A DNA stretch of 64,000 bases from Patescibacteria group bacterium (GCA_041665845.1 JBAYIC010000001.1:137531-201530); one strand, 5' to 3'; shown: positions 4,378-12,163, counted from the first letter of the stretch. Notes: a model not told the origin generated them from the letters alone. Program-made: numbers and translations.

Positions 4378-5943
4378 TTAATTGCGAATTGAATATTTAC
4401 AACCGCAGAATTTTTGACGATAGATTCCTAGTTCCTTAGCTAATTCTTGAGATTTTCTATAACCATCATTAGCTTGAAAATCTTCTTCTATAAATTTAAC
4501 TCCAAAACTTAAAGACAAATCAGTCGACATCTTGATGATTGCCTCTTTGTCTTTATAGGGGCTAGTTAAAAGGGTTGTCCCAAAAAAATTAAAATCTTTT
4601 TCTTTAGCTAGTTTTACTGTTTCACGCAAACGATCTAAATAACAAATTTGGCAACGAGCACCTCTTTCTGGATCAGTTTCTCGCCCTTTAATTTTTTGAG
4701 ACCAACGCTTATTATCATAAGGAACAACGATGAGTTGAATACTAAATTTTTCCGCCATTAATTTAACCGCTTCTAAGCGCTTATCGTATTCTTCCTGAGA
4801 AACAAGATTGGGATTATAAAAAAACCAAGTTAAACGATAACGAGGAAGCAACAAATCACGACTAACATAAGTTCCACACGGCGCACAACAAATATGTAAC
4901 AACAGAGAGGGTTTTTTTAATTCTTGACGCCGATCTAATAACCTGAAAGAAATAATAATAATTAACATCAAGAATAATAAAACAATCAAAACTAAAACCT
5001 TTCCGCGACTTTGTAAAAATAAACCACTCAAACCAAAGACTAAAGAAAATAAATAAAAAATCAAAACGGTTTTTTTCTGTCCGAAACCTAAATTAAGTAA
5101 ACGATGATGGAGATGCTTATTATCGGAGAATTTGAAAGGGTTTTTGCCTTGTGATAAGCGCCTAATTATGGTCCAAGCAACATCGAGAATCGGTATGCCC
5201 ATAATAAGTAAGGCAATCGCAATTTTACCCCCAGAAATTATGGCTAAGACGCCAAGAGCAAAACCAAAAAATAATGAACCGCCTTCTCCTAAAAATATTT
5301 TTGCCGGATGAAAATTAAAAATTAAAAAACCTAGTGCTGCCCCGGCTAAAATTAAAGCTCCCAAAGCGATATCGGGCTGATAATATTTCGTAGTAAGCGT
5401 AAATAAAAAAATAACTAAAGCGCCGATTGCTCCAACACCACTCACCAATCCGTCAACCCCATCTAAAAGCTTAGTGGTATACATCATGCCTAATAACCAA
5501 ACGGCAATAAGTATCGGACTAATTAAAAGCCAGTCTTTAAGATAAATAAAACCACCCAAGGGATTGGTAATTTTATCAATTTCTACGCCACCAATAATAA
5601 CCGCAATAATTGCCAACAACGGAAAAATAATTTGCTTAGTGGGGGCTAGATTATATTTATCATCTAAGGCGCCACCAATAATAATTATCAGTGCACCGAT
5701 AAAAAAACCTAAGAGATGTCGCCATTCTAAATCACCGGCTAAAAAACGCTCAGAGAAAAAAAATAAAACTGCGAAAAAAGATATAAAAATAGCGATGCCA
5801 CCTAAAAGCGGTATTGCCTGATTATGAATTTTTCTCTCCCCTGGCTTATCAACAATATTAAAATAAACAGCGATTTTTTTAATGCCAATAGTTAAAATGA
5901 CTGATAATAAAAAACTGGCTAAAAATGGGTAAATATAGGACAT
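4378..5943 (-). CDS. Fusion protein. The N-terminal part is a polytopic MraY/WecA-family (GT4) polyprenyl-phosphate sugar-1-phosphate transferase. The C-terminal part is an epoxyqueuosine reductase QueH (DUF208) domain.
   Basis: The N-terminal ~340 aa has about 10 TM helices with LDGVDGL and DDKYN motifs. The C-terminal ~175 aa reads LLLHICCAPCGTY...FFYNPN...RCQICY...TTLLTSPYKD...YRQKFCGCKYS, which is colinear with QueH. Confidence 0.85.
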   Translation of the reverse strand: MSYIYPFLASFLLSVILTIGIKKIAVYFNIVDKPGERKIHNQAIPLLGGIAIFISFFAVLFFFSERFLAGDLEWRHLLGFFIGALIIIIGGALDDKYNLAPTKQIIFPLLAIIAVIIGGVEIDKITNPLGGFIYLKDWLLISPILIAVWLLGMMYTTKLLDGVDGLVSGVGAIGALVIFLFTLTTKYYQPDIALGALILAGAALGFLIFNFHPAKIFLGEGGSLFFGFALGVLAIISGGKIAIALLIMGIPILDVAWTIIRRLSQGKNPFKFSDNKHLHHRLLNLGFGQKKTVLIFYLFSLVFGLSGLFLQSRGKVLVLIVLLFLMLIIIISFRLLDRRQELKKPSLLLHICCAPCGTYVSRDLLLPRYRLTWFFYNPNLVSQEEYDKRLEAVKLMAEKFSIQLIVVPYDNKRWSQKIKGRETDPERGARCQICYLDRLRETVKLAKEKDFNFFGTTLLTSPYKDKEAIIKMSTDLSLSFGVKFIEEDFQANDGYRKSQELAKELGIYRQKFCGCKYSIRN

Positions 5944-6051: not shown

Positions 6052-6264
6052 ATGGGTTCTACAGCAGATGAAATTAAAAGAGTGATAATATGCATTAATA
6101 TCACCCTAAAGGCCGTAAAAGACAAGCTTACGGCAGAAGGAAATAATGCAACTCCGAGCCAATATAAAATATTGGTCTGGGAAAAAGAAATACGGCACCT
6201 TAGACGTGCTCTGGAAAAAAAGAACAAAGAATTAAAACAAAAAAGAACAAGAGTAATGGCCTAA
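6052..6264 (+). CDS. Small hypothetical protein (70 aa) with a basic coiled-coil-like C-terminus
   Basis: AGGAGG ribosome-binding site sits 10 nt upstream of the ATG. A terminator hairpin follows. Confidence 0.55.
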   Translation: MGSTADEIKRVIICINITLKAVKDKLTAEGNNATPSQYKILVWEKEIRHLRRALEKKNKELKQKRTRVMA

Positions 6265-6285: not shown

Positions 6286-6320
6286 AAAACGCGTTCGGGT
6301 AACTGGCGCGTTTTTTTATT
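6286..6320. terminator. Bidirectional intrinsic terminator between convergent genes
   Basis: AAAACGCG (6286-6293) pairs with CGCGTTTT (6307-6314). A T-run follows. Confidence 0.6.
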
Positions 6321-9010
6321 TAAAGTGCTTCGGCTTTTTCAATCAATACTTCCGCCTTGTTGTTAATTATCACTTGATCGCGACGTTTTAATTCACCGGC
6401 TAAAAGTTTATTAGCGATCATATCTTCAACTTTATCTTGCAATAATCTCCTTAAAGGTCGGGCGCCGAATTTCGGGTCATATCCGGCCTTGGCTAAAATC
6501 ATGACGCCATCTCTATCAGCTTTAAGGCCAATTCCTTTTTCGGCTAACACCTTCTTAATTTTCTTCAACATTAAGGTTGTAATGGTAAAAATATTTTCTT
6601 CATCAAGCGGTTTAAAAACAATAATTCCATCAAAACGATTAATAAGCTCCGGACGCATATGCTCACGTAGCTGATTATCGATTAACTCTTGTTTAATAAT
6701 ATTTAAATTAGTTTTTGCCTTGATTTGATCCTGAATAAATATCGCGCCGATATTAGAAGTTGCGATAATAATCGATTCGGCAAAACTAATTGTTCTTCCC
6801 TGCCCATCCGTTAAACGCCCATCGTCTAAAAGCTGTAAGAAAAGATTCAAAATATCAGGGTTAGCTTTCTCTATTTCATCAAGTAGAACTAAAGCAAACG
6901 GTTTTTTTCTAACCGCCTCAGTTAAATAACCAAGCGTTCCATCCACATCACCGATCATTTTTCTAATACTATCTGCTTGCTGATATTCACTCATATCCAA
7001 GCGAATGAGATAATCTTCACTTCCAAAGTATATTTGCGAAACTGCTTTAGCGAGTTCAGTTTTACCAACACCAGTCGGTCCGAGAAATAAAAAACTAGCA
7101 ATTGGACGATGACTATCTTTCATGGCCGCTCGCGCTCGACGTAAACTAGCCGATACTGCTTTAACGGCCTCATCTTGCCCAACTAATCTTTCATGTATCT
7201 CATGTTCTAAATTAAGCAGTTTTTGCCCTTCATCAACGCCAACTTTGCTAGTCGGAATACCGGTTAGTTCAGCAATCGCTAAAGCGACATCTTCTTTTGA
7301 ACAAAATAATCTTTCGGGATTATTTTTACTCGCAGCTACAGCAATTGTAACTGCTTTTTCTAGTAAATTAATCGCTTTAAGTGGTAACGCCTTATCATGC
7401 AAATATCGCATCGACATCTTTACTGCCTGTTCAATAGCACTGTAAACAATGTAGATATCATACTTAGATTCCAAAAAACCAACCCTGCTCTCTAATATTT
7501 GAATTGCTTCATTAACATCCGGCTCTTTAATGCCAATAGTCGTCATCGCCTCGCCCAAGGCTTTATTTTCAATATAATGAGTATAATTTTCCGTCGTCGC
7601 TGAAGCTAAACAAAAAATTCCTTTACGACCTATTGTTTCAGCTAAAACTTCCGATAAATCCAAACTTTCTTTACTACCAGCGCTAACCCCAATTAAATTT
7701 TCAATATTATCAATGTATAAAATTATATTACCGGAACGTCGAGCTTCATTCATACAACCTAAAAGTCTTTCTTCAGCCGCGGAGGGATCGGCGCCACTTA
7801 TTAGTTTAGAAACGTCTAATTCAACTAATCTTTTATCTTTCAAAAAGGCCGGGACATCTTCTTCGACCATCATCTGAGCTAGTCCTCCAATAATAGTACT
7901 TTTTCCGACTCCATTTGGCGAAACCAATAAAACGCCATTATGGCCACCGGCAAAAGCCTCAAAAATTGAAGTAATTTCCTTAGTTCTTCCGACACAAAGA
8001 TCAAGCTCACCATTTTTAGCTTTTAACGTTAAATCGCGAGAAAAATGATCTAAAGAAGGGGTCGCGATTGCCGTATAAGAACGATTCATCCCCGAATTCG
8101 GCTTAAACAAGGCTGAGCGTTTATATTCATAATAACGATCCATTAATTTTTTATTTACTCGAAACCACTCAACCGCATTTATCATCTTATCTTCATCAAC
8201 TTCTAGCTCATACATTATTTCTGCTAGATTTTTATCTTGACCATAACAAAAAATAATAACGTTCAACAAATCAACCCCGTTTTGTTTTAAATTATAAGCA
8301 TTAATAAACGCCGAAATGAGCGCTTCTTGCAAATTTTCAGAAATATTTTCTTCAGCATCAGCCTTTTTGCTAGCTGATTTTACTAATTGCCTATCGACCA
8401 TTTCAATCATCCGTTTAGCATCAACATTAAGGCGTATAAAAAGACTTTGAACTTCTTTAGTTTTTAAAGCCGCTCGAAAAAAATGGATAATTTCAACCTG
8501 GTTGCAACCCAGTTTATTAGCTAAAAGAAAAGCGTCTTCTAAAACTCTAGTTGTTTCTTCAGAAAAAGCTTGAGCCGTATTATAACGCCGTCCCGAATCA
8601 TTCTTAAACTTCTTATCTGTTTTAAAAAGCTTATAATTTATTTTTTTAATTGCAGCTGCGGCCGCCCTAGTTTTATAAACAAGAAACAAGTCAAACCATA
8701 AAGAAAGAAGAAAAAAAGCAATCAAAATATCTGGTTTAACCCAAGAAAAAAGAATATTAAGTGGGTCAGCTTGTAATTCCGTTCGATTTATAAAAATCCA
8801 AACAGCAAAGACTGCCCAACCAGCAAAAATGATTAACCAAGAAAAAAAACTTAAAATTTTGTTTATTTGCAATCTGGATCGTTCAAGAGCAATTAAAGAT
8901 TTTTTAATAGTTTTATTCCAATATAAAAAGCGTCCCAAAAACCAAGCTCCTTGCCCCTTGCCGCCGCTATCTGGTATAAATTCGATTTTATCATCTTGCT
9001 GCTTACTCAT
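6320..9010 (-). CDS. Membrane-anchored Clp/Hsp100-family double AAA+ ATPase, ClpA/C-like architecture without an M-domain, with a degenerate NBD1
   Basis: N-terminal TM helices are followed by two Clp_N-like repeats. NBD1 has Walker A SPNGVGKST and Walker B ILYIDNIE (Asn where the catalytic Glu is expected). NBD2 is canonical ([27 protein letters not shown]). The start was chosen at MSKQQ (9010), which abuts the upstream stop at 9012. The track start is 9040. Confidence 0.85.
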   Translation of the reverse strand: MSKQQDDKIEFIPDSGGKGQGAWFLGRFLYWNKTIKKSLIALERSRLQINKILSFFSWLIIFAGWAVFAVWIFINRTELQADPLNILFSWVKPDILIAFFLLSLWFDLFLVYKTRAAAAAIKKINYKLFKTDKKFKNDSGRRYNTAQAFSEETTRVLEDAFLLANKLGCNQVEIIHFFRAALKTKEVQSLFIRLNVDAKRMIEMVDRQLVKSASKKADAEENISENLQEALISAFINAYNLKQNGVDLLNVIIFCYGQDKNLAEIMYELEVDEDKMINAVEWFRVNKKLMDRYYEYKRSALFKPNSGMNRSYTAIATPSLDHFSRDLTLKAKNGELDLCVGRTKEITSIFEAFAGGHNGVLLVSPNGVGKSTIIGGLAQMMVEEDVPAFLKDKRLVELDVSKLISGADPSAAEERLLGCMNEARRSGNIILYIDNIENLIGVSAGSKESLDLSEVLAETIGRKGIFCLASATTENYTHYIENKALGEAMTTIGIKEPDVNEAIQILESRVGFLESKYDIYIVYSAIEQAVKMSMRYLHDKALPLKAINLLEKAVTIAVAASKNNPERLFCSKEDVALAIAELTGIPTSKVGVDEGQKLLNLEHEIHERLVGQDEAVKAVSASLRRARAAMKDSHRPIASFLFLGPTGVGKTELAKAVSQIYFGSEDYLIRLDMSEYQQADSIRKMIGDVDGTLGYLTEAVRKKPFALVLLDEIEKANPDILNLFLQLLDDGRLTDGQGRTISFAESIIIATSNIGAIFIQDQIKAKTNLNIIKQELIDNQLREHMRPELINRFDGIIVFKPLDEENIFTITTLMLKKIKKVLAEKGIGLKADRDGVMILAKAGYDPKFGARPLRRLLQDKVEDMIANKLLAGELKRRDQVIINNKAEVLIEKAEAL

Positions 9011-9011
9011 A

Positions 9012-9380
9012 TTAATAACTAATCTGATAAAATAAGGCAATTATTAAAAATAAAGGTAGGGCTAACCATAATCCCGCCCCAGCAATAAGTACTAATAACC
9101 ATAATATTAAAACTAAACCTCTAAAAATAATTTGAAGAAAACGAATAAAAAAACTAATTACTCGACCAGCCAAATCATATTGGCCGTACATTGGAACAAA
9201 AATATTCTTCAGCCAAATATTAAATCCTAAACTTTTTTCTTGATTACGCAAAAAATTGAGCTCCTTTTTTAAGGTCTCAATAAAACCAACACTATACCAC
9301 CAAAGAGGAAAATAAATAATTTCTCCCAAAGTCTTAAGGATTATTTTTCCGCCGTAAGTCAAAAAATTATGTCTAAACAT
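9012..9380 (-). CDS. Small integral membrane protein, unknown function, first gene of a two-gene operon with the membrane Clp ATPase
   Basis: The ORF has 3-4 TM helices. The start was chosen at MFRHNF (9380), because the longer track ORF to 9443 would run through the clpB promoter. The stop is 1 nt from the next gene's start. Confidence 0.6.
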   Translation of the reverse strand: MFRHNFLTYGGKIILKTLGEIIYFPLWWYSVGFIETLKKELNFLRNQEKSLGFNIWLKNIFVPMYGQYDLAGRVISFFIRFLQIIFRGLVLILWLLVLIAGAGLWLALPLFLIIALFYQISY

Positions 9381-9436
9381 AGATAATTTTATCAATTTTA
9401 TTTTAACATAAAAATATCGACCTGACCAATTTAAGA

Positions 9437-9465
9437 TTGACAAGAGTTAGGTCTTATATTATTAT
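9437..9465 (+). promoter_or_regulatory. Sigma70-type promoter of clpB
   Basis: TTGACA (9437-9442), 17-nt spacer, TATTAT (9460-9465). Confidence 0.7.
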
Positions 9466-9469
9466 TTGA

Positions 9470-9496
9470 TTAGCACTCTAATATTATGACTGCTAA
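9470..9496 (+). promoter_or_regulatory. CIRCE operator (HrcA binding site)
   Basis: The sequence is TTAGCACTC-N9-GACTGCTAA. The consensus is TTAGCACTC-N9-GAGTGCTAA, so there is one mismatch. It lies just downstream of the -10 box and 28 nt before the clpB ATG. Confidence 0.85.
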
Positions 9497-9523: not shown

Positions 9524-12163
9524 ATGTTCAATAAATTTACTGACAAGTCCCAAGAGGCAATCATCAATGCTCAAACAATTGCTTCAAATTACGGTCAACC
9601 TAATATAGAAGCAATTCACATCTTTCTAGCTCTTCTAGAGCAAAGCGAGGGATTAGTTAAGCCTGTTTTAGAAAAAATGAAAATTGACCCGGAAATAATA
9701 GAGGAAGAAGTAATTAAAGTTATCAAAAGTTTGCCAAGAACAAAAATTTTTCCACAAAACGGACCGGTTCAGGCTGTATCAGGAACGGCAGAAACCGCGG
9801 CTGTTTTAGAAAGAGCCCAGAAAGAAGCCGACGGAATGAACGATGAATTTATTTCCACAGAACATATTCTACTTGCGCTCATCGGTATTCCCTCTCCCGC
9901 ACAAAAGATTCTGCTTGATTTTAAAGTAGAATATAAAATTATTAAAGATATTCTAAAAGAACTGCGTGGCTCACAAACTGTTAACGATCAATTCCCAGAA
10001 AATAAATTTCAAGTCTTAGAAAAATACACAACCAATTTAACAGAGATGGCTAGACAAGAAAAACTTGATCCAGTTATCGGACGCGATATGGAAATAAGGC
10101 GTATTATGCAAGTCCTTTTGCGTCGTACTAAAAATAATCCGGTTTTAATTGGTGAAGCTGGTACTGGAAAAACAGCCGTCGTTGAAGGATTAGCACAAAG
10201 AATAGTTTCGGGAGATGTTCCAGAAAATTTAAAAAACAAAGAAATCATTTCTCTAGATTTAGGCGCTATTGTTGCTGGAGCAAAATTTCGAGGCGAATTT
10301 GAGGACCGGTTAAAAGCAATTTTAAAAGAAGTTAAATCGCAAAATGGCCGTCTGATTCTATTTATTGATGAACTACATACTCTCATTGGCGCTGGCGCCT
10401 CTGAAGGTTCAATGGACGCCTCTAATATGTTAAAACCAGCTTTAGCGAGAGGTGATTTACGAACTATCGGCGCAACCACAACCAAAGAATATCAAAAATA
10501 TATTGAAAAAGACGCCGCCCTAGAAAGAAGATTTCAACCAATTTATGTTTCCGAGCCTAGCGTTGAAGATACTATTAGTATGCTCCGCGGTTTGAAAGAA
10601 AAATATGAAGTCCATCACGGTGTAAGAATAACTGATAATGCTTTAATTGCCGCCGCCAAATTATCGCATCGTTATATAAGCGATCGTTTTCTTCCTGATA
10701 AAGCAGTTGATCTTATTGATGAAGCAACCTCTTCTCTGCGCATGGAAATAGATTCTATGCCCGATGAACTTGATCAATTAAAAAGAAAAATAAACCAGCT
10801 TGAATTAAATAAGGCTGGACTCATGACGACTGATAAGAAATCTCCTAAAATAAGAGCAATTAATCAAGAATTAGCTAAATTGAAAGAAAAATCCAATCAA
10901 TTAGAACTTCATTGGAACAATGAAAAAAACATTATTTCTCAAATTAGAAATTCTAAAAAAGAAATTGAAGATTTAAAAATAAAATCAGAAATCGCTCAAA
11001 GACAAGGAGCGGATTTAACCGAGGTCGCAAAAATAAAATATGGCTTAATTCCTGAATTAGAAAATAAAATCAATCAATCTCAAGAAGAATTGTTAAAAAT
11101 TCAAAAAAGAGGGCAAAGAATACTGAAAGAAGAGGTTGATGAAGAAGATATCGCTAAAGTAGTTGCCCGTTGGACCGGTATCCCGGTTAATAAAATGCTT
11201 CAAGATGAAATTAAAAAATTAAGTGATGCCGAGAAAAACTTAAACCAAGAAGTAGTCGGCCAAGAAGATGCAATTAAAGCAGTAGCGAATGCCCTTAGAA
11301 GGTCGCGCGCCGGAATAAATGAAGAAAAAAGACCAATCGGTTCTTTCTTATTTGTTGGACCAACCGGAGTTGGGAAAACTGAACTAGCAAAAACTTTAGC
11401 GCAATTTATGTTTGATGACGAAAAATCTCTCATTAGACTAGATATGAGTGAATTCATGGAGAAACATTCAGTCGCTAAATTAATCGGTTCACCTCCTGGA
11501 TATATTGGTCATGATGATGGCGGACAATTAACAGATAAGGTTCGTCGCCATCCTTACAGTGTTGTTTTATTTGATGAAATAGAAAAAGCTCATCCCGATA
11601 TGTTTAACGTCTTATTGCAAATATTGGATGATGGGCGCTTAACTGATTCTAAAGGGAGAACGATAAACTTTAAAAACACAATCATCATTATGACCTCCAA
11701 TCTAGGGAATGAGGTCATAAAAAATTATTCTATTGGCTTTAATGATGAAAGTGATAAAAAGCAAGCAACCAAAACAAGAGTTAGCGAAATGAAAGAGAAA
11801 ATCGATAAAATTCTCAAAGATCATTTCAAGCTTGAATTTTTAAATCGCATTGATGAGGTTGTTCTCTTCCATAGCTTATCGCCTGAAGCTCTAGAAAAAA
11901 TAGTCGACTTGGAACTCAGTAAAGTAGAAAAGAGATTGGCCGCTAAAAATATTAATGTTAAAGTCGGCTCTAAGGTTAAAAAAATGTTAGCGGAAAAAGG
12001 CTATGATATAACCTATGGCGCAAGACCACTAAAAAGAATTATCCAAAATCTCATTTTAGATGAACTTGCTCTAGAAATAATTGAGGGTAAAATAAAAGAA
12101 GGTGAAAAAGTAAAAATAGATTTAGAAGGAAAAGAAAAAATTACCATTGAAATAATAAAATAA
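9524..12163 (+). CDS. clpB: Chaperone/disaggregase ClpB
   Basis: 879 aa with Clp_N repeats. NBD1 has GEAGTGKT and LFIDELH. A long coiled-coil M-domain is present. NBD2 has [12 protein letters not shown] and LFDEIEKAH. Confidence 0.97.

Follow-up and report, generated by a model that had tools for sequence, protein, structure and literature searches.

A membrane-anchored Clp/Hsp100-type ATPase with a degenerate first ring and its linked small membrane protein in Patescibacteria

What might a Clp/Hsp100-type ATPase do when it is fixed in the membrane, one of its two rings has lost its catalytic residues and both canonical aromatic pore loops are missing? To our knowledge, and in the literature searched, Hsp100/Clp proteins have been regarded as soluble machines that thread their substrates; the question is raised by two adjacent genes in a 64,000-nucleotide stretch of DNA from a Patescibacteria group bacterium (GCA_041665845.1 JBAYIC010000001.1:137531-201530), the whole of which is hereinafter termed the window. 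Gene A codes for an 896-residue protein with predicted N-terminal transmembrane (TM) helices followed by two AAA+ modules (D1 and D2), and gene B, directly 5′ of it on the same strand, for a small membrane protein of 122 residues. With a confidence a little above even, we propose that B and A together constitute a ClpP-independent, D2-driven, non-classical membrane AAA+ machine, in which B would be the obligate partner of A.

The open frame containing A spans 6320-9040 on the minus strand, and its ATG at 9010 yields a product identical to P0001, a protein of a Patescibacteria metagenome-assembled genome (MAG) for which NCBI, JGI and ENA all give 896 residues. As the preliminary description of this DNA had claimed, this start lies one nucleotide after the stop of B (Table 1), and the tightness of the junction fixes the start codon. 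The N-terminal region thus delimited contains two hydrophobic helices, with Lys and Arg distributed as 10 in the first 51 residues, two in the loop between the helices (75-92) and 10 in residues 114-150, a pattern that fits an N-in/C-in hairpin with the ATPase body in the cytoplasm. By all sequence criteria used, namely hydropathy, charge bias and predicted helices, A is predicted to be membrane-inserted. The second helix carries an Asp (Asp107) that is near-invariant among close homologues.

A belongs to a large family of the Patescibacteria. More than 120 proteins share at least 65% identity and the same length with A. An exhaustive search with its residues 1-560 against representatives at 50% identity recovered over 150 clusters that align from the N-terminal tail through D1, outscoring any canonical Clp, and that retain the full length (~870-940 residues) together with the anchor and the D2 motifs. 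Family-wide column counts given below derive from 103 full-length representatives at no more than 50% identity, hereinafter the distant representatives. All 103 possess the anchor, which was scored as present or absent (Kyte-Doolittle >1.6, with ClpB controls): the maximal 19-residue hydropathy within the first 200 residues is at least 1.72, as compared to 1.16-1.48 in the ClpBs. Membrane tethering thus holds across the family and is absent from canonical ClpBs. The suspicion that A is no more than a Clp paralogue in decay and without function, or that its N-terminal hydrophobic region is an annotation artefact, could draw on the loss of canonical motifs in D1 and in both pore loops. However, it is effectively refuted, and we accord it next to no probability, given the retention of length, anchor and D2 motifs in more than 150 clusters, the invariant residues in the pre-TM and TM regions, the agreement of three annotation sources and the start fixed by the B-A junction.

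Open reading frame (ORF), hydropathy, AlphaFold2 and Pfam together bear out the overall architecture in the preliminary description, that of a Clp/Hsp100 protein of ~896 residues with N-terminal TM helices and two AAA+ modules. Above their cut-offs, Pfam recovers AAA_lid_9 (PF17871, residues 499-569), AAA_2 (PF07724, 635-794) and ClpB_D2-small (PF10431, 802-881). The Clp_N model remains sub-threshold (17.6 bits as against a cut-off of 20.7; E 0.0045); nevertheless, a diverged N-domain is supported by the NCBIfam ClpA model, the alignment of which begins at model position 2 and residue 150, by precomputed PF02861 (Clp_N) matches in most A homologues, and by eight helices in residues 151-302 of the AlphaFold2 model.

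The N-terminal tail has a history of its own, which the preliminary description missed. Two CxxC motifs are found here in 70 of the distant representatives, typically as CPxCxGxG-x(5-10)-CxxCxGxG followed by FLYWGK just before the first TM helix (e.g., P0245-P0387 and the loci L008, L011, L019 and L022; equivalent to window ~8918-9010). The CxxCxGxG repeat pattern is the signature of the DnaJ zinc finger, which contributes to client binding. In the query and its Falkowbacteria-like relatives all four Cys are gone while GAWFLGRFLYW is retained, and three short strands remain at the former zinc-finger site in the AlphaFold2 model. As judged from this distribution, the DnaJ-type zinc-finger pair is ancestral to the A family and was lost in the lineage of the window.

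Alignment with Bacillus subtilis ClpC locates the decay of D1. The Walker A motif GEPGVGKT is replaced by VSPNGVGKS, Walker B FIDELH by YIDNIE with an Asn in place of the catalytic Glu, the pore loop AGTKYRGEFE by SGADP-SAAE with loss of KYR, and the Arg-finger segment ALERRFQ by ALGEAMT with loss of both Arg. The YIDNIE motif is conserved in about 90% of close homologues, and across the distant representatives the catalytic position is occupied by N in 42, D in 36, G in 7, H in 7, S in 4 and E in only 2, bearing out the claim of an Asn for the catalytic Glu. The Ser that starts Walker A in the query had also been emphasized; it is present, but as the family consensus carries Gly (GPTGVGKS with Gly in ~70-80% of close homologues; Gly in 101/103 distant representatives), it is a local variant. 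The P-loop Lys is kept in 90/103 and the Ser/Thr that follows it in 51/103, whereas the pore-loop Tyr is absent and the Arg fingers are mostly absent. Thus, the preliminary description was correct as far as it went, but it understated the decay of D1, which has reached the Arg fingers and pore loop as well as, in half of the family members, the Ser/Thr of Walker A. We predict that D1 does not hydrolyze ATP by the canonical mechanism; nucleotide binding may nonetheless persist, as most members retain the P-loop Lys. Distant members share on average 40% identity with the query in D1 as compared to 58% in D2, indicating that D1 is under constraint, though less than D2. With its motifs lost, D1 is apparently kept as a fold rather than as an enzyme.

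This motif pattern fits a single non-hydrolyzing ring, for which D2 of NSF and D1 of Pex1/Pex6 offer precedents: in these the fold and often nucleotide binding are kept, catalysis is lost, and the ring serves assembly. The likeness is one of ring logic, for NSF and Pex1/Pex6 belong to the classical AAA clade, are soluble and, unlike A, retain aromatic pore loops in their active ring. By this precedent the D1 ring of A would be a pseudo-ATPase, most likely acting as an assembly or scaffold ring.

D2 is intact in Walker A, Walker B, sensor 1, Arg finger and sensor 2. Walker A and B, the Arg finger and sensor 2 are each over 90% conserved in the distant representatives; the finger residue of A, R792, is invariant among close homologues. 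D2 is therefore predicted to be able to hydrolyze ATP. Its earlier characterization as fully canonical holds for all catalytic motifs but not for the pore loop, from which the GYVG element is missing: ClpC GSPPGYVGYDEGGQ corresponds to GDVDGTLGY in A, with five residues deleted. The canonical loop of the form G-aromatic-hydrophobic-G is found in 0/103 distant representatives, which instead have a loop of 3-13 residues (13 in ClpB) that is often rich in Gly and Ser; about half of them show an aromatic residue in it, mostly as the last residue before the next helix. A second deletion separates A from the protease-linked Clps: the ClpP-docking insertion KYVGF of ClpC is a gap in A, and no insertion occurs at this position across the family, whereas the neighboring ClpB-like protein, serving as a positive control, shows an IGF aligned to the ClpC loop. 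The coiled-coil M-domain of ClpC (402-466) likewise corresponds to only eight residues in A (557-565), so that the absence of both features reported earlier is borne out by the alignment. With the Asn conserved, the start correctly called and no ClpP loop emerging upon alignment, the three points on which the earlier reading had been staked have all come out in its favor.

Where, then, does A belong among the Clp/Hsp100 proteins? Its NCBIfam scores fall far short of the cut-offs for ClpA (464 against 993 bits), ClpB (TIGR03346; 544 against 1232) and ClpV (TIGR03345; 426 against 885), as also for ClpK and ClpG. The best solved relative is B. subtilis ClpC (437 bits), and ClpC provides the top Foldseek matches, with ClpB among the other structural matches. 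The order of a probable Clp_N, D1, D2 and D2-small equals that of ClpC and ClpA, and ClpA, which also lacks a long M-domain, aligns with A in a single stretch. In contrast to both, A has a TM hairpin, no IGL/VGF ClpP loop, a D2 from which GYVG is deleted and a D1 without the Walker B Glu, the Arg fingers and the pore-loop Tyr. With ClpB/Hsp104, A shares the double ring, independence from ClpP and a highly similar D2 and D2-small (a partial match to TIGR03346), but it lacks the coiled-coil M-domain, and hence DnaK coupling, as well as the pore-loop Tyr, and is anchored in the membrane. On these scores and alignments we classify A as a class-I Clp/Hsp100 protein nearest ClpC/ClpA and outside every named subfamily: it has neither the ClpP loop typical of ClpA, ClpC and ClpE nor the M-domain of ClpB/Hsp104, and it lacks two traits common to the class at large, an active D1 and aromatic pore loops. 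Lacking both an IGF/VGF loop and an M-domain, it would not partner a protease, nor would it act as a disaggregase coupled to DnaK, and its public label, ATP-dependent Clp protease ATP-binding subunit ClpC, is misleading because ClpP docking is impossible. A ClpP active-site motif is not found within the 64-kb window, which is the part of the genome this statement covers, and no type VI secretion genes were identified among the neighbors of A, which are housekeeping genes. A curated model for the A architecture or for B was not found in Pfam, NCBIfam or PADLOC.

B offers few sequence landmarks. Its homologues comprise 1968 clusters, all ~121-130 residues long, all labeled hypothetical and without a Pfam domain; those with a named source all carry labels of Patescibacteria-group lineages. 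A profile search gave only stand-alone proteins of ~122 residues and no fusions, and comparison of B and of each member of a 26-sequence alignment with Pfam, NCBIfam and PADLOC gave no match except a spurious one to MurJ. Two motifs are invariant, YFPxWWYxxG and F.PMYGQxDxxGRxISFxxR, and the AlphaFold2 model (pLDDT, the predicted local distance difference test score, of 90) is a long helical hairpin of helices 6-51 and 70-121 with the PMYGQ loop between them, for which Foldseek returned from the PDB only non-significant helical-hairpin matches (E above 3). The protein had been called multi-TM, which is not clear: only residues 88-118 are strongly hydrophobic and the N-terminal helix is weakly so, pointing to one or two membrane helices. 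The basic hairpin is presumably cytoplasmic. Like the second TM helix of A, hydrophobic helix 1 of B (window 9285-9344) carries a conserved acidic residue, an Asp or Glu that precedes YFP by five residues in most homologues.

The linkage of B to A was assessed by a scan of one genome per species with a single peptide pattern from a 6-sequence alignment, giving a sparse sample of 29 loci: 21 of the A family (L005-L024, L031), two Saccharibacteria-like (L032, L033) and six with an ordinary Fibrobacteres ClpB. Together with the contigs L001 and L003, the family is represented by 23 loci, in 22 of which a hidden Markov model of B finds it directly 5′ of A on the same strand, in Falkowbacteria, Buchananbacteria, Komeilibacteria and other Patescibacteria. 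In 20 of these 22 loci the distance from the B stop to the A start is -4 (ATGA), 0, 1-7 or 11 nucleotides. The surroundings vary. Falkowbacteria-like genomes are fully syntenic with the window, with a divergent clpB on one side and a fused glycosyltransferase family 4 (GT4)-QueH gene, YkuD and a beta-propeller protein downstream. Other lineages have no clpB beside the pair; their upstream flanks feature DUF4012, DUF11, queuine tRNA-ribosyltransferase (TGT), DNA-alkylation repair, a pilin-like protein, FtsA/FtsZ/NrdR or a papain-like protease, and their downstream flank an unfused GT4 or a class II aminoacyl-tRNA synthetase. Variable genes separate TGT from B, but none ever interrupts the B-A pair. 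Since the pair persists while its neighbors change, B and A are most simply seen as a two-gene operon, the products of which act together. These junctions and co-occurrences indicate that B is co-inherited and translationally coupled with A, upholding the earlier suggestion that the small membrane gene is its coupled partner.

The A-like architecture reaches beyond the B-linked family within the candidate phyla radiation (CPR), as seen in two Saccharibacteria-like relatives with 30-35% identity (L032:7218-9737, 839 residues; L033:1416-3884, 822 residues). Both have N-terminal hydrophobic helices and an intact D2 without the loop Tyr, together with a D1 that is further eroded, having lost even the P-loop Lys in L033. 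Neither locus has B upstream of its A-like gene.

The divergent neighbor invites a different reading, namely that A is a reduced paralogue that tethers or regulates the ClpB/ClpC-like protein, or FtsH, via mixed rings or stacking, in the manner of the inactive FtsHi or of Pex1/Pex6. The 879-residue ClpB-like gene starts 143 bp from B on the opposite strand, such an adjacent and divergent clpB is found in the window and in all Falkowbacteria-like loci, and a degenerate D1 along with lost D2 pore loops is what one would expect of a regulatory paralogue. Yet the adjacency is confined to the Falkowbacteria-like genomes and missing in all other lineages, in which B-A persists, and the over 90% conservation of the D2 catalytic motifs points to an autonomous ATPase. 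In addition, the best plus-strand promoter-like site (9437-9465, 11/12 matches) is followed directly by the intergenic controlling inverted repeat of chaperone expression (CIRCE), which is upstream of the minus-strand promoter-like sites; by this placement it looks like an operator of clpB rather than of B-A. We hence deem a tethering or regulatory role improbable. Heat-shock co-regulation with clpB was similarly rejected as a feature of the A family, as the adjacency is lineage-specific.

Taking these features together, the proposed membrane AAA+ machine would work as follows. A would be held in the cytoplasmic membrane by its two-helix hairpin, its N-terminus and its AAA+ body both facing the cytoplasm, and D2 would be the sole motor. 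Translational coupling would supply B in a fixed ratio to A, as a dedicated membrane partner, be it an adaptor, a regulator or a standing client, likely contacting A through the invariant motif at its cytoplasmic hairpin tip (F.PMYGQxDxxGRxISFxxR) with the N-domain and/or through the membrane helices. With no canonical aromatic pore loop left in either ring, and with a short, variable loop in D2, threading is unlikely and non-classical work likelier: the machine might use ATP to remodel or hold membrane-associated clients rather than thread them processively. The closest analogy would be the Torsins, relatives of the Clp/Hsp100 proteins that have no aromatic pore loops and act together with cofactors in the membrane (PMC5425593). 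Like Torsin with LAP1/LULL1, A is a Clp/Hsp100-related AAA+ protein, associated with the membrane and without an aromatic pore loop, and has in B a candidate for a dedicated membrane partner. The likeness is offered as an analogy, for the eukaryotic Torsins are single-ring, sit in the lumen of the ER and nuclear envelope and receive their Arg finger from an AAA-like cofactor, whereas A is predicted to be double-ring and cytoplasmic with its own D2 Arg finger, and B is a small helical hairpin that is not AAA-like.

Several observations weigh against this proposal. The last residue of the D2 loop (Y43, L17, Q11, I9, H6, V6, F4 among the 103) is hydrophobic or aromatic in ~77%, the Tyr at the end of the loop (Tyr695) is invariant in close homologues, leaving room for a non-canonical grip, and a few representatives retain APPG[YF]. 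Confidence in the AlphaFold2 model of A is no more than moderate (pLDDT 72, with D2 at ~50-60). One of the 23 family loci (L008) has A without an adjacent B, and general synteny could account for some of the B-A adjacency, given the partly conserved DUF4012-DUF11-TGT block that recurs upstream of the pair in non-Falkowbacteria lineages (L009, L010, L012, L013 and others). Moreover, it is from sequence that we infer the hexamer, the scaffold role of D1, the physical contact of B with A and the non-threading mode.

The D2-loop residues in particular would suit a membrane-protein extractase or quality-control unfoldase, comparable to Msp1 or the FtsH ATPase, which threads its substrates via non-canonical loops with B as adaptor or substrate receptor. 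Like A, FtsH and Msp1 have an N-terminal TM anchor and a cytoplasmic AAA+ ring facing the membrane, although theirs consists of one classical AAA module that has an aromatic pore loop, to which FtsH adds a protease domain; A shows none of these traits. Besides the anchor, the intact D2 motor and the probable Clp_N domain, such an activity would be in keeping with the DnaJ-type CxxCxGxG zinc finger of most relatives and with the C-terminal hydrophobic helix of B, which resembles a tail anchor. Against it stand the complete absence of the canonical aromatic-hydrophobic-Gly loop from D2, the Gly/Ser-rich D2 loop of such variable length, suggestive of relaxed constraint, the family-wide lack of the D1 pore-loop Tyr and the missing protease partner motif. 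These facts weaken the extraction role put forward in the preliminary description, and we regard it as rather unlikely, albeit the most serious of the competing explanations.

Returning to the non-classical machine, a more specific version can be advanced tentatively, at somewhat less than even confidence: A-B might be a Patescibacteria-wide complex descended from a ClpA/C-type unfoldase that abandoned threading for Torsin-like remodeling, Bcs1-like gating or control of B. If the non-threading mode is true, the pair would stand as a counterpart, evolved independently in bacteria, to the eukaryotic non-threading Clp-derived ATPases. A large membrane-integral Hsp100 family in which the first ring is structural, canonical pore loops are lacking and a small membrane protein is the obligate partner would widen the known scope of this scaffold, and B-A would present a simple two-gene system for asking how an AAA+ ring devoid of aromatic pore loops operates, a question still open for Torsins. 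The pair also marks a conserved, apparently housekeeping membrane module in the CPR/Patescibacteria, the envelope biology and host dependence of which are poorly understood. A description of a membrane-anchored bacterial Hsp100 was not found in the literature searched, which takes in the CPR protein-family paper PMC6744442 and lies mostly outside the subscription journals.

Table 1. Features of the B-A locus and its divergent neighbor, in window coordinates (residue numbers refer to A)
Feature	Position	Strand	Basis
Gene A, 896-residue membrane-anchored Clp/Hsp100-type ATPase	6320..9010 (incl. stop codon)	-	ORF, Pfam, ClpC match
Gene B, 122-residue small membrane protein 5′ of A (ATG at 9380, TAA at 9014-9012)	9012..9380	-	Identical to P0121
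B stop/A start junction: TAA, one base (9011), ATG (9010-9008)	9010..9014	-	Sequence
Pre-TM motif GAWFLGRFLYW, 21-31	8918..8950	-	Conserved; most relatives have CxxCxGxG pair then FLYWGK here
TM helix 1, 52-74	8789..8857	-	Kyte-Doolittle max 2.26; AlphaFold2 helix 37-74
TM helix 2, 93-113, with Asp107	8672..8734	-	Kyte-Doolittle max 2.05; AlphaFold2 helix 95-120
Diverged Clp_N-type N-domain, ~150-300	8111..8563	-	Weak Pfam Clp_N, ClpA model, eight predicted helices
D1 (first nucleotide-binding domain, NBD1), predicted pseudo-ATPase module, 340-560	7331..7993	-	ClpC alignment, family columns
D1 Walker A SPNGVGKS	7898-7921	-	ClpC alignment
D1 pore loop without Tyr	7769-7798	-	ClpC alignment
D1 Walker B YIDNIE	7700-7717	-	ClpC alignment
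D1 Arg-finger site, fingers lost (ALGEAMT)	7541-7561	-	ClpC alignment
D2 (NBD2), predicted active ATPase module, 600-800	6611..7213	-	Alignment, family columns
D2 Walker A	7058-7081	-	Alignment
D2 shortened pore loop IGDVDGTLGY, without GYVG	6926-6955	-	Alignment
D2 Walker B LLDEIEKA	6863-6886	-	Alignment
D2 ClpP-loop position, no insertion	6707-6760	-	Alignment
D2 Arg finger NRFDG	6626-6640	-	Alignment
ClpB_D2-small C-terminal domain, 802-881	6368..6607	-	Pfam PF10431, E 3e-21
Sensor 2 GARPLRR	6446-6466	-	Invariant columns
Divergent ClpB-like chaperone gene	9524..12163	+	TIGR03346 1209 bits
CIRCE operator, intergenic	9470..9496	+	1 mismatch, 0 expected by chance

The remaining genes around the pair were considered for hints of a cellular role. 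The next gene 3′ of A (window 4378-5943, minus strand) codes for a fusion of an MraY/WecA-like GT4 to QueH, an epoxyqueuosine reductase, as identified by Pfam. Between it and A lies a Lys-rich ORF of 70 residues (6052-6264, plus strand), without an assigned family, that is annotated as a gene in ENA and Logan from the same genome (L001 12747-12959, L002 2794-3006); a 61-residue ORF occupies the matching position in L005. With TGT located 1-3 genes upstream of B in other lineages, queuosine genes recur around B-A. A queuosine link based on the upstream TGT and downstream QueH fusion was set aside as probably residual synteny, with variable genes intervening, and a cell-wall or division role based on the MraY-like GT4 or the FtsA/FtsZ neighbors as inconsistent across lineages. 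An anti-phage defense system was likewise rejected in light of the housekeeping context and the lack of a PADLOC match for B; on A, PADLOC gave only generic D2-domain matches (PDC-M37B, DolB). As to the upstream DUF4012 gene, a DUF4012-containing family, fam000574, is discussed in PMC6744442, which mentions a proposal that a DUF4012 gene codes for an auxiliary envelope protein.

Twelve of the loci (L006, L007, L010, L012, L014-L016, L018, L019, L022-L024) are titled uncultured Gammaproteobacteria bacterium. In gene order they match Falkowbacteria/Patescibacteria, with gene identities of up to 70%, and the title looks like a placeholder or a wrong taxonomy label on MAG assemblies.

Finally, the divergent clpB had been described as canonical and CIRCE-controlled. 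The gene and the CIRCE are confirmed, but the supposedly canonical protein carries a ClpC-type IGF. It has a full-length ClpB-type M-domain and scores just under the TIGR03346 cut-off of 1232 bits, and its NYSIGFND (IGF at ~11732-11740) aligns to the AGF loop of S. aureus ClpC at a position where T. thermophilus ClpB has a gap. On this alignment, the neighboring protein may be a hybrid of ClpB and ClpC with the capacity to dock ClpP.

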